64,000 nt of DNA from Octopus vulgaris (lineage: Eukaryota): assembly GCA_951406725.2 (NCBI GenBank), contig OX597831.1, forward strand, positions 52,080,001 through 52,144,000, read 5' to 3'. Below the pieces are notes generated by a model. The model saw only the letters and a list, made by a program, of their open reading frames with translations, was not told the DNA's origin and searched no databases. The first letter of the stretch is position 1, and every line of letters begins with the position of its first letter. The translations under genes were made by a program, and so were the position numbers. This document shows positions 4,168-60,821 of the stretch, piece by piece.

Positions 4168-4243
4168 GTCTTCCAGCCATTTCTGGGATAACCCAAGTGA
4201 TTGGTTAGTATGTCCTCACACTGGGTATTCTGTCATCAGAGAC
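4168..4243 (-). ncRNA. Degenerate hammerhead ribozyme-like motif
   Basis: Minus strand: GUCU-CUGAUGA-long stem II (AUACCCAGUG/CACUUGGGUUAU)-GAAA-UGGCUG-GA-AGAC; cleavage triplet mutated. Confidence 0.5.
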
Positions 4244-4389
4244 AAGGTATGAATATTTAGACAGGGAAAATTTACAGTTTACAAGGAATAAAATAGAAGA
4301 ATAAAAAGTAAAGGTAGTTTGAAGAATATAGGCAGGAGAATAATGTTCGCAATTCATCGTTTTCCAGTATCAAAGCATAAAAAATATTC

Positions 4390-5367
4390 TAAATGCTCTG
4401 AAATCATCAGAGCACCTGAATTTATCCAGCAAGTTCAACAAACCATTGATTTCAATCCCAGAAAGTCCATGAGGTCAATTGCAAAAGATCTCTATGTGTC
4501 AGAAGCAACAGTCAGAAATGTTGTCCATGAAGACATCAGATATAAATCTTATATGATGAGGAAAAGACAATTTATGTTAGAAAAAGCAAAAGAAAATCAC
4601 TACATCAGATCTAAAAGGCTCTTAAACAAACTGAAAAATCCAGCAGAAGATTTGATTTGGTTTTTCTCAAATGAGGAAAACTTTGACCAAGATCAAAAAG
4701 AAGTGGCAGATGGTTATGTGCAGACCCTTCTGAAGTTCCAAGTGTTATGCATACAAAATTTCTTGCAACTGTCATGGTTTTAGGGGGTGTCAACAATGAA
4801 GGACATGTGATGCCTCCTTACTGCTTTCCACACGGCCTTAGAGTTAACTCTACCGCCTACATTGAGGTCTTGGAAATAATTGTTAAGCCCTAGATAGACA
4901 GTGTATGCAATGGAAGGCCATATGTGTTTCAGTAAGGCTCTGCACTATCACACATGGCTCTAGTAATACAGGAATGGATGGCTGAAAATTTTCATGATCA
5001 CATAACCCCTAACATTTGGCCTCCTAATTCCCCAGATCTCAATCCATTGGACTATTATATGTAGAGCATTGTTGAGAGAGAGAGGTCAATGTACATGCCC
5101 ATAACACCAAAGATTCTTTGAAAGTCGCCATAGTCAGAGTAATGTCCAAAATGAACCAAGACCACTTGATTCGAGCATGTAGATGATTTAGATCTCATAT
5201 AGAAGCAATTATTGAAGCTGAAGGTGGTTTTTATTGAATAACATTATAGAAAAGAATGTTTATTTTTATCCTCATAGCATTTTTTTGATAAATCAAGTTA
5301 TTTTCTGTCATTATAAATCTGTTTTTTTGTAAACATCAATCTGTCCTCAAATATCTTAGGCATCCTG
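4390..5367 (+). mobile_element. Tc1/mariner superfamily (maT-like) transposon remnant with 3' TIR
   Basis: HTH SMRSIAKDLYVSEATVR, WFFS.E, and WPPNSPDLNPLDY motifs with frameshifts; ends CATCCTG+TA. Confidence 0.8.
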
Positions 5368-5408
5368 TATATATATATATATATATATATATATATATAT
5401 ATATATAT

Positions 5409-5788
5409 AGGCGCAGGAGTGGCTGTGTGGTAAGTAGCTTGCTTCCCAACCACATGGTTCTGGGTTCAATCGCACTGCGTGGCACCTCGGGCAAGTGTCT
5501 TCTACTATAGCCTCAGGCCAACCAAAGCCTTGTGAGTGGATTTGGTAGATGGAAACTGAAAGAAGCCCGTCGTATATATGTATATATATATATATGTAAG
5601 TGTGTGTATATGTTTGTGTGTCTGTGCTTGACAACCGATGCTGTGTTTATGTTCCCGTAACTTGGCGGTTCGGCAAAGAGACCGATAGGCTTACAAAGAA
5701 TAAGTCCTGGGGTCAATTTGCTTGACTAAAGGCGGTGCTCCAGCATGGCCACAGTCAAATGACTGAAACAAGTAAAAGAGTAAAAGAG
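5409..5788 (+). mobile_element. tRNA-derived SINE, dominant family (AGGCGCAGGAGTGGCTGTGTGG head, internal TA/TG tract, GAAACAAGTAAAAGAG tail)
   Basis: A/B-box-like head; many near-identical copies in the window. Confidence 0.85.
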
Positions 5789-5989
5789 CAATATATATAT
5801 ATGTAATGTATATATCTATTATATATATTATGTATATATCTATTATCTATCTATCTATATATATATATATATATATTTGTTTTTGTCCAAGGACTGAGGC
5901 CATGCTGGGGCACCACTGTTTACTTTGCTACACTTTCACTAAACCTCCTCTGATAGGTGACATTTGGCGGATGAGGAAGTTTAACTATG

Positions 5990-57869: not shown

Positions 57870-57968
57870 TACGAAATCTTTGGTCATTCTGGAGAGAACT
57901 ATGACGCACCCTTTGTGAAAGCTGATCAAGCTCCGAAGAACAAGAAAGAGAGACTTGTTGTTTTAAAG
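57870..57968 (+). CDS. VWA8: VWA8 exon 18 (YEIFGHSGENYDAPFVKADQAPKNKKERLVVLK)
   Basis: ttacag acceptor and AAG|gtatta donor; phase 0 to 0; Y.I.GHSG motif; not in the ORF track. Confidence 0.93.
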
Positions 57969-58507
57969 GTATTATGTTTACCCTTTTGATACAACCCCCC
58001 TCCCGCTTCAAACTGCCCCTGGTTCTATGATACCAACTTCCTGTTTTAGTGTGATCATCATCGTCATTATTGTTTGTCTGCCTTCCTTGCTGGCATGGAT
58101 TGGATGGTTTGACAGGAGCCAGCTAGGTAGAAGACTACTGTGTCTGTTTTAGCATGGTTTTTACATGGTTTTTACAACTCGATACCCTTCCTAACACCAG
58201 AATGAACTGAGTGCTTTTTGTGTGGCACCAGCACAGGCGAGGTCAGTTTTGGCATGGTTTTTACAGTTAAGTACCCTTCTAAATGCCAACCACTTCACAG
58301 TGTGGACAGGATGCTTTTTACATTGCACCAGAAAGCATCCAGTCCACACTATGTTAAAACCTTTAACCCATTATCATTCAGATTAGTTGGTAAAATGTAA
58401 TGCTTATTTATTCAAATTAGTTTGAATTAATAATGCATTATCTCATACTTTTGAGATTTCATCTACTAAGATTTATGCGTGTGCTTTTATGTCCCAAACA
58501 TGTATAT

Positions 58508-58998
58508 AGGCATAGGAGTGGCTGTGTGATAAGTAGGTTGCTTATGAACCACATGGTTCCAGGTTCAGTCCCACTGCGTGGCACCTTGGACAAGTGCCTT
58601 CTACTATAGCCTCGGCCCAACCAAAGCCTTGTGAGTGGATTTGGTAGACAGAAACTGAAAGAAGCCCATCATATATATGTATGTATATATATATATATAT
58701 GTATGTATGTGTATATATATATATATATATATATATATATATATATGTGTGTGTGTGTGTGGGTGTGTGTATATGTTTGTGTGTCTGTGTTTGTCCCTCC
58801 AACATCGCTTGACAACCAATGCTGGTGTGTGTTTACGTCCCCATAACTTAGCGGTTCAGCAAAAGAGATGGATACAATAAGTACTAGGCTTACAAAGAAA
58901 AAGTCCTGGGGTTGATTTGCTCGACTAAAAGGCGGTGCTCCAGCATGGCCACAGTCAAATGACTGAAACAAGTAAAAAAGTAAAAGAGAGTAAAGAGT
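58508..58998 (+). mobile_element. Dominant-family SINE
   Basis: Full-length copy. Confidence 0.85.
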
Positions 58999-59261
58999 AT
59001 GAGAGGGTCTCTCAGACTAATAATGCAGTATTTGGTGTTCCAACAATACATCTATATTAAGTTGGATGTAAAGATTACTTTTTGGTATTAATACTGTTTC
59101 CGTCCTTAATAATTTATTATGAAACCATGTAGTTGCAAAGTGAGTTTCTTAACCACACATCCATTCCTGTGCCCATAGATGAAAGCATTTTAATCCATTT
59201 GATCTCCAGTTATCATCATACATTATTATTATTGTTGTTTTTTGTTGTTACTCTATTACAG

Positions 59262-59500
59262 ACCATGCATGCACACTCACAGTTCTGCCTGAGCGGAGAC
59301 AACACTTTAGAAGCAACGAAGCATGCTATTGACTCGGTTGCCAAAGAAGAAGCTGATGAACACTTTGTCATCATCCTAAGTGATGCCAACTTTGAACGGT
59401 ATGGTATCAGTGCTAGGAAGTTCTCAGAACTGCTCACCGAAAACAAGGAAGTGAATGCTTTTGCCATTTTCATTGGATCTCTTGGAGACCAGGCTGTCAG
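59262..59500 (+). CDS. VWA8: VWA8 exon 19 (TMHAHSQFCLSGDNTLEA..LSDANFERYG..AFAIFIGSLGDQAV)
   Basis: ttacag acceptor and AG|gtaagc donor; phase 0 to 2. Confidence 0.97.
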
Positions 59501-60821
59501 GTAAGCGCAAGCTCTTAACCATTATCAAGAATTACAATTTTAGTTTGTCTTTACATATTATAAAATTACAGCTGAGATTACTGTTGAGATCATCATCATC
59601 ATCATTGCTTTAATGTCCACTTTTCCATGCTTGAATGGGTCAGACAGAGTTTAGTGAGGCAGATATTCTATGGCCCTTCCTGTCACCAACTCTCACCTGT
59701 TTCGAAGCAAACATGATTTTGCAGAATACTGGAAATGTTTGACTTTCATTTACAACAATCATGTGATGTCAAGATGAGAAGACACATACAGATGCACATA
59801 TATGTATATAGGTAACTAAATCTAAGATAATAAATCATAACTGGTCCAGTCCAAGGCAACGCGAAAACGAATGACACTGCCTTAGGTTGTCACGGGTGAC
59901 ATGGTAGTGAGAGAAGGGAAAGAGAGGAAGAAAGAGAGAGAGAGAGAAAGGAAATTAAAAGAGAAGCCAAGTAAAGGGACAGAGTGACACAAAATATTCG
60001 AAGAATATTTCTACAACAATTCTCTTTGGTCCTTGCTATATCACTCTCATGCCTATAGTCCTTTAGGACAGTTTCCATTTCTTCTGAAACAAATAAACGA
60101 ATTAAAGAACATATATATATATATGTCACCATGATAGATCGTTAGCCACTACACACATTGTTTTCTCTCCTTGTTTTTCTGTGTCCCTTTCTGTAGAAGA
60201 GCGTAGGCTTGAAATGTAAAAGATTTTTTCTATTCCTGAGCGTTATACTAATACATGTTTGTTTTGTACACCACCTGTCTTCGTCTTTTGTTTTTTTTTC
60301 GTAAACTCTCCTTATATATATATATATATATATACACATATATATGTGTGTGTGTGTGTGTATGAATATAAACATGTATATACATACATACATATAAGTG
60401 TGTATTGTACCAGTGGCATGTAAAAAGCACCATCCGAACGTGGTTGATGCCAGTGTCCCCTGACTGGCTCCTATGCTGGTGGAATATAAAAAGCACCCAC
60501 TACACACTCAGAGTGTTTGGTTTTAGGAAGGGCATCCAGCTGTAGAAACCTTGCCAGATCAGACTGGAGCCTGGTGCAGCCTACTGGCTTGCCAATCCTC
60601 AGTCAAACCATCCAACTCATGCTAGCTTGGAAAGCCGATGTTATACAATGATATGATGATGATATGTATATATACATATATTTTATTATATACCCAGGCC
60701 TATTCCCCATTCTTTTAGGAGTGGGTAGCCACAACAAACATTTCTCAGCTCAAAGAAGCGATCCCTTGGGTCAAGGCATAGGACACAACCCCCATTTATC
60801 AGCAGTGGGGCATGACAGCAA

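Follow-up and report, generated by a model that had tools for sequence, protein, structure and literature searches.

Hammerhead ribozyme motifs related to Penelope-like elements in introns of the Octopus vulgaris VWA8 gene: mostly decayed copies and altered cores in the abundant lineages

Hammerhead ribozymes of Penelope-like elements (PLEs) are not new for animals (PMC4209133), and the supplement to that report already lists minimal ones for the molluscs Lottia and Crassostrea. Here we describe 15 hammerhead motifs located in introns of the VWA8 gene of Octopus vulgaris, within a window of 64,000 nucleotides (assembly GCA_951406725.2, contig OX597831.1, positions 52,080,001 to 52,144,000 of the forward strand). 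Going by the available text of PMC4209133, the PLE motifs described there and those of the octopus have in common the type I topology, a short stem I and a palindromic stem III. Several octopus families also include the extra base between A9 and stem II, and in both cases there are many families per genome, mostly present as single truncated copies, and opposite-strand pairs 100-700 bp apart. On the other hand, the octopus numbers exceed the maximum given there (about 9,000, in Xenopus), although the descriptors differ, and the dominant octopus subfamilies have U at position 6 or C at position 4 of the core, whereas the consensus in that text is CUGANGAH and the variant it mentions is U3-A8. 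The motifs in the window are probably hammerheads in short repeats consisting of PLE 3' tails (established for two lineages, likely for the others), inserted in either orientation, mostly decayed, and cutting the VWA8 pre-mRNA little or not at all.

The Poseidon element PAc of Anolis carolinensis (PMC11167929) resembles the octopus elements in its reverse transcriptase and GIY-YIG endonuclease, in the hammerhead of its pseudo-long terminal repeats (pseudo-LTRs) and in its AT-rich targets. According to the accessible part of that report, PAc was tested biochemically: its hammerhead cuts only with the element's protein, cleavage is dispensable for insertion in vitro, since catalytic mutants still insert, and no RNA-seq ends were found at the cut site. 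The octopus elements, in contrast, are known from sequence, and the family D core is A6U. PLE insertions are described in the available portion of PMC8557442 as 5'-truncated with a tandem or inverted structure, which the octopus copies match; the same portion calls the function of the hammerhead in PLEs unclear and states that the hammerhead-less Naiads thrive. Non-LTR retrozymes (PMC7229834; bioRxiv 10.64898/2026.07.22.740005) are likewise non-coding animal repeats with type I hammerheads that originated in PLE pseudo-LTRs, but as presented in the accessible text they are head-to-tail tandem units giving circular RNAs, whereas the window copies are solo or inverted; the bioRxiv text also reports their depletion from Xenopus introns. 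The hammerheads of the amniote genes RECK and C10orf118 (PMC3088659, PMC6765202) also lie on the sense strand in introns of conserved genes; in the parts of these papers that were available they are few, conserved and self-cleaving in vitro, while the octopus copies are multi-copy and decaying. Thirty-one recently active Penelope-like families have been reported in O. vulgaris (PMC13282606), in a paper whose available text includes neither the word "ribozyme" nor "hammerhead". Our literature search found no report of octopus PLE hammerheads or of a natural A6U core, and earlier works or supplements may include these variants.

The exon at 59262-59504 is 100% identical to an Octopus sinensis protein named VWA8. 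Mapping of this protein, together with spliced contigs, places coding exons on the plus strand of the window from 8579 (residue 1027) to 63186 (residue 1892), and the remaining residues map within the 48 kb upstream, so that the gene starts about 48 kb before the window. All 15 motifs are intronic and the plus strand is the sense strand. A Pfam scan of 15 open reading frames of the window named neither VWA8 nor the PLE remnant discussed below.

The 15 motifs had been proposed in an initial annotation of the window, and all of them hold hammerhead-derived sequence of a known kind. A motif was considered type I when it had the core CUGANGA / GAAA / UH with stems I to III in type I order. Three copies satisfy the full core and stems, as compared to none in 60 local dinucleotide shuffles, and with one core mismatch allowed the window has six motifs against a mean of 0.48 in 25 shuffles; the motif count thus stands clear of the shuffled controls. 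The three intact copies, all on the plus strand, are 17758 (family C, 17753..17839, with 5 bp in each of stems I and II, a palindromic stem III and its putative cut after 17834), 51730 (family D2, 51726..51760, 4-bp stems and a 2-bp stem III in a tail of about 215 nt between (TA)n runs, putative cut after 51756) and 57050 (family A, 57038..57112, canonical core, 12-bp stem I, putative cut after 57100). Each of the remaining 12 lacks one or more of these elements. Two, both on the plus strand, have the variant core of their subfamily: 14413 (family A, 14407..14469), with the U4C core that is the family's commonest state, and 60191 (family D, 60187..60222), with a subfamily-fixed A6U core in a tail of about 190 nt between (TA)n runs.

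In five copies both core boxes are preserved, but the stems are broken or U16.1 or H17 is wrong. These are 4239 on the minus strand (family H, 4164..4243, with G at position 17 and the stem II closing pair lost; one of its two relatives, ionC6a 57210, is intact), 17458 on the plus strand (family B, 17453..17498, mismatches in stems I and II, the family 3' pattern having 3,891 exact copies), 18225 on the minus strand (family I, 18170..18231, U16.1 changed to C), 44737 on the plus strand (family F, 44730..44778, CUAG palindrome, mismatched stem I, and no relative in the 1.66 Mb searched) and 57481 on the minus strand (family G, 57442..57485, stems broken). The remaining five have lost a core box: 25683 on the plus strand (family D, 25679..25714, where family comparison finds both boxes destroyed), 37975 on the minus strand and 37999 on the plus strand (family E, 37933..37980 and 37994..38041, GAAA box lost in each), 56762 on the minus strand (family A, 56700..56774, core CAAAUGA) and 57535 on the plus strand (family G, 57531..57573, G12A). 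Family E is the most degraded, and other genomic copies of it show the full motif. A CUGAUGA...GAAA match at 16149 was rejected as it is exonic and fails the descriptor, and a 3-nt deletion breaking stem I was dropped as a family B subfamily because it occurs in only 7 of the first 100 exact copies.

The window self-comparison showed that the sense/antisense pairs of families A, E and G are the inverted halves of single insertions (the family A twins are 90% identical over 128 nt), and the 15 motifs therefore represent 12 insertions. Family I copy 18225 also has a truncated inverted partner, absent from the initial list, at 18497..18694 on the plus strand, which is 91% identical over 198 nt and includes only the 3' half of the motif. 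The proposal of at least seven unrelated families stands insofar as we count nine lineages, or ten if D and D2 are split, but 25683, 51730 and 60191 belong to one superfamily. The Rfam hammerhead model did not recover the window motifs: none was among the best 150 of 216 matches of a window scan, which were microsatellite microRNA matches and one weak tRNA, and in a genome search with RF00163, in which 73 of 263,217 candidates were scored, six exceeded the cut-off and none lies in the window.

Family D (25683, 60191) is the 3' pseudo-LTR sequence of a PLE. Its motif is found 660-1,000 nt 3' of a GIY-YIG match on the same strand in six independent places (L065, L238/239, L244, L250, L251 and L261), and L250/L251 show a partial tandem arrangement. 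A search with the endonuclease piece gave 16,585 first-look genome candidates, of which 150 were scored, all of them at least 91% identical. Five copies with long open frames were fetched from the genome, and four of them (L271, L272, L273 and L274) include YIDD reverse transcriptase and YIGQT GIY-YIG motifs in one frame. Locus L274 (G000:C1:35009401-35015400) holds, at 227-5437, a complete young full-length PLE, with pseudo-LTRs (227-858 and 4804-5437) that are 98.4% identical and each carry the family D A6U hammerhead; a 1,119-codon open frame with both protein motifs lies between them, and there is an inverted 5' piece besides. Its Pfam matches are RVT_1 (E=1.4e-7, above the curated cut-off) and GIY-YIG (E=0.007, below it). 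D2, represented by 51730, is by sequence the sister group of family D. The family A motif lies about 600 nt 3' of broken coding remnants in L258 and L259, which we take to be Neptune-like from their motifs and which have a Pfam GIY-YIG match of E=0.033.

The proposal of Penelope-type hammerheads with a palindromic stem III in many families is thus borne out for two lineages traced to PLEs, A and D. Families B, C and E to I are likely PLE tails as well, as judged by their architecture. The majority of the copies are tails of 150-600 nt between (TA)n runs. An upstream inverted partner was found in 12 of the 26 orientable family A loci (30 were fetched) and in none of 30 D2 loci. Regarding head-to-tail units, there was no close direct repeat in the 26 family A loci and one partial case in the 30 D2 loci; in the window, self-comparison found only inverted or distant copies and no tandem pair, which separates them from non-LTR retrozymes.

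The initial annotation had associated the motifs with a Penelope remnant in the same window. This remnant (48880..50030, plus strand) is indeed a broken PLE piece comprising the end of the reverse transcriptase and GIY-YIG, but it belongs to another family, and over 87 residues it shares 60% identity with the L257 element. No DNA match was seen between it and the five family D elements, none of the 15 motifs lies at its end or is otherwise tied to it, and a homolog search with it gave no matches.

The most abundant superfamily has an altered core. Whole-genome exact counts were obtained with the D/D2 stem II-stem III pattern, the U4 pattern also requiring three T before the core. The canonical CUGANGA core has 5,112 exact copies, while 19,600 have a base other than A at position 6 (U in 97 of the first 100 listed) and 9,063 a base other than U at position 4 (C in 98 of the first 100 listed); reversed-pattern controls gave no matches. 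From these counts, about 85% of otherwise perfect D/D2 copies are non-canonical. The A6U core is inherited rather than a product of decay, since the exact U6 motif is present in four of the five long-frame elements, and in both pseudo-LTRs of L274.

In spite of the altered core, the hammerhead fold of the D superfamily is, judging from sequence variation, still respected. A sample of 54 copies, taken from a profile search outside the pattern-selected sites, shows all four bases at N7 and G at H17 in only one copy; N7, H17, loop II and stem I continue to vary within hammerhead rules. Among 50 distinct copies, 21 have C-G and 12 have G-C as the outer pair of stem I, a compensatory change that provides the stem covariation expected among genomic copies of a folded RNA. 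After dropping six near-duplicates, polymorphic columns amounted to 3/27 in core and stems versus 59/104 in the flanks (p=2e-5), and among U6 copies alone to 2/27 versus 29/105 (p=0.04); these values are to be read knowing that the profile includes the motif, the copies are related, one inherited change is counted repeatedly, and many flank columns are poorly aligned pyrimidine tracts.

In family A, a hand count of positions 3-5 in 54 exact-pattern copies gave CCG in 30, CCA in 9, CTG in 13 and others in 2. Six of the CTG copies derive from one segmental duplication, leaving 8 CTG against 9 CCA, and this near equality points to CpG deamination of a CCG source, for which symmetric decay is expected. 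From this symmetry, 14413 is by its sequence a copy with family A's normal U4C core, and the canonical core of 57050 probably arose after insertion by CpG decay of CCG. The twin of 57050 reads CAA at these positions, which fits a CCG origin. By rough arithmetic, the canonical D2 copies would mostly be too numerous to be CpG decay products. The segmental duplication itself includes loci L005, L006, L012, L013, L017 and L019 (five on C17 and one on C60), which are 94-97% identical over 1.5 kb or more surrounding a family A copy.

Natural variants at the same two positions are known. In the accessible text of PMC3088659, U4C (in a viroid) and A6C (in phage Bcep176) lower but do not abolish activity: A6C cuts at less than 0.1 per minute, and U4C is much slower in vitro yet sufficient for viroid infectivity. 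Those are rare single cases, whereas in the octopus two unrelated families have U4C as their main state and A6U, not found in the main text of that paper, is fixed in lineages with 19,600 copies that include elements with intact frames. That A6U and U4C are fixed in the cores of the most prolific lineages would, on this comparison, be a modest novelty.

The origin we favor for the window copies can be put as a series of steps. A PLE would carry a type I hammerhead in its pseudo-LTR, 0.6-1 kb behind GIY-YIG, as seen for families A and D. Following the mechanism given in the literature, reverse transcription would begin near the hammerhead end and usually halt early, so that short hammerhead-bearing tails are inserted. 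The tails would land in AT-rich DNA or (TA)n runs, in many cases together with a second piece in inverted orientation, in agreement with the pattern described above, and would then decay, CpG sites first, as the family A counts indicate. A lone copy would need a partner for stem III and perhaps the element's protein, as proposed in the literature, and a sense copy that has an inverted twin upstream of it would, by prediction, be held in double-stranded RNA. The source elements of the most abundant lineage carry A6U or U4C cores, and most copies are for this reason likely slow or inactive from the start.

The initial annotation considered the VWA8 pre-mRNA to have several potential self-cleavage sites. 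This is not supported, as seven of the ten sense copies are broken or non-canonical and the three intact ones are predicted to lose stems in context. The palindromic stem III is closed by a loop of 0-1 nt, which is a dimer design, and in the available text of PMC4209133 a single minimal motif does not cleave and dimers cleave weakly. Sense partners of the same family sit in other introns, 8-43 kb away. Predicted stem I and II probabilities of 57050 are about 0.9 when it is folded alone and 0.0 when it is folded with its twin, which lies 280 nt upstream and is transcribed first; 57050 is thus predicted to be locked in the duplex with this inverted twin, with a predicted energy of -188 kcal/mol. 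The stem I probability of 17758 was 0.0 in the three contexts folded, and that of 51730 fell from 0.2 alone to 0.02 in context. Spliced contigs join the exons flanking the introns of 51730, 57050 and 60191 (one contig each, from runs X1 and X13 of two studies). The joins 48322 to 53268 and 59498 to 63079 are direct, and that from 53426 to 59260 crosses a 99-nt piece fitting the 57875 exon. Extensive adenosine-to-inosine editing is characteristic of cephalopods. The inverted PLE pairs at 56670-57138, 37900-38074, 57322-57676 and 18013-18694, with predicted duplexes of -93 to -307 kcal/mol, would likely serve as long double-stranded RNA substrates for such editing in the VWA8 introns.

Low-level cutting without selection is unlikely, although it survives better than the other alternatives. 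An intact copy would pair in trans with RNA having the same palindrome, or would be helped by a PLE protein, and the host would tolerate the cut because splicing removes the intron in any case. Copies with ACGU as the stem III palindrome number in the tens of thousands, contigs matching the repeats abound in putative RNA runs, where they are not assignable to the VWA8 locus, and protein-assisted cleavage is reported for the Anolis element in the available part of PMC11167929. Against these points, an intermolecular stem III of 4 bp is weak, 51730 has the low stem I probabilities given above, and variant cores make up the bulk of the exact copies in its superfamily.

Several observations weigh against the view that the window holds decayed PLE tails of little or no activity. 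Folding alone, 57050 does well and could form a 3-bp monomer stem III, and all folding results are equilibrium predictions only. Runs X1 and X13 are only guessed to be RNA, X13 being filed under another organism label; the contig donors are other individuals, in which the insertions may be absent, and cut ends are not visible in contigs. For families B, C and E to I there was no link to a PLE coding frame among the loci examined, no targeted search having been made. The sense strand has all three intact window motifs and seven of eight unpaired insertions (p about 0.07 for the latter in a two-sided binomial test), the window appears somewhat enriched, with 3 intact motifs as compared to 0.92 expected (P=0.066), and the strand test in other genes is small (21 motifs), so that a modest bias could escape it.

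These sense counts also speak for use by the host, in which sense intronic hammerheads would be kept and, by cleaving the pre-mRNA, would adjust the splicing or the level of VWA8, as do the conserved intronic hammerheads of amniotes in the accessible text of PMC6765202 and the large number of motifs in the genome. A comparison set of 1,448,276 bases was assembled from 21 segments, namely the stretches between exons of myosin, SMC and ion-channel genes plus the 5' part of VWA8; the genes were found by Pfam matches, from which orientation was inferred, and in 19 of the 21 the presumed sense strand is richer in T than in A. These 1.45 Mb include 21 intact motifs, 9 sense and 12 antisense (p=0.66), against 2, 0, 0 and 0 in four shuffles. 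If the set is typical, about 40,000 intact-core motifs would exist in the genome (95% range 25,000-62,000). The claim that the motifs are mostly sense finds no support here, and in the window the 10 sense copies of 15 are not a significant excess (p=0.30). D-superfamily copies of any quality are 8 sense and 15 antisense in the other gene bodies, where intact U4C motifs number 2 and 3 and intact A6U motifs 2 and 5, respectively. In this larger set, one-mismatch descriptor matches (8 versus 4-7 in shuffles) were not used, and U3-A8 matches (5 versus 0-4) were not counted. Since there is no sense excess in other genes, the 48-kb 5' part of VWA8 has no intact motif, the copies decay like neutral repeats and sequestration is predicted for the best copy, 57050, host use is very unlikely.

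A sense-biased layer of intronic cleavage is consequently not supported. The estimate of one motif per 4 kb counts dead relics; intact motifs occur once per 21 kb in the window and once per 69 kb in the other gene bodies. What remains of the proposed large ribozyme layer is the presence of tens of thousands of hammerheads in the genome, which is a phenomenon known in animals (PMC4209133).

A chance origin in AT-rich repeat DNA, which could appeal to the Rfam result and to the five copies lacking a core box, is refuted by the empty shuffles, the absence of reversed-pattern matches against thousands of forward ones, the compensatory stem I change and the full motif in other copies of degenerate family E.

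PLE hammerhead relics are expected in the introns of any PLE-rich animal, and the intronic layer in itself is of little consequence. The core variants, on the other hand, bear on whether hammerhead cleavage matters to Penelope elements, a question raised in the available portions of PMC8557442 and PMC11167929. It is possible, though doubtful, that in the octopus the most prolific Penelope lineages use a rewritten hammerhead, having A6U in elements with intact frames, U4C in two families unrelated to each other, and selection still acting on the remainder of the fold; such hammerheads would be either detuned or non-catalytic, and CpG decay would arm some U4C copies after insertion, 57050 being one. 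If detuned, they could let tens of thousands of copies sit uncut in host introns; if non-catalytic, the hammerhead fold could be an RNA signal for the element's protein. The importance of cleavage is directly testable in this genome because it holds canonical, U4C and A6U sister subfamilies with their copy numbers and an A6U element with an intact frame. A warning also follows for descriptor counts of "intact" ribozymes, which can include cores made by CpG decay and miss the commonest variants.

Further observations were made on related elements and on the rest of the window. Within VWA8 the relics are unevenly spread, none intact being found in the compact 48-kb 5' part and three in the 63-kb 3' part. 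Loci L257 (3940-4400) and L263 (4190-4600) include the PLE family related to the 48880-50030 remnant and show, by eye, a U3-A8 covariant hammerhead behind the open reading frame; an inverted pair of similar U3-A8 motifs also occurs in the C9 myosin stretch. At L107-L108 (G000:C15, about 209800-215400) a 5-kb long interspersed nuclear element (LINE) is inserted between two intact hammerheads in inverted orientation, one of which is preceded at 285 nt by a Neptune-like endonuclease end. The window has two LINE reverse transcriptase remnants (Pfam RVT_1), at 54469-55455 on the plus strand and 6494-7648 on the minus strand. Many near-identical copies of the former occur in putative RNA runs, and behind it, at 55700-56460, lies a tandem array with units of about 62 nt. 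Weak Pfam matches to a Tc1-type transposase helix-turn-helix and to DDE_1 at 4292-4783 (plus strand) and 9967-10398 (minus strand) represent decayed DNA transposons, and a weak tRNA-like match at 20362-20425 on the plus strand (Rfam 26 bits, below the cut-off) is probably the head of a short interspersed nuclear element.

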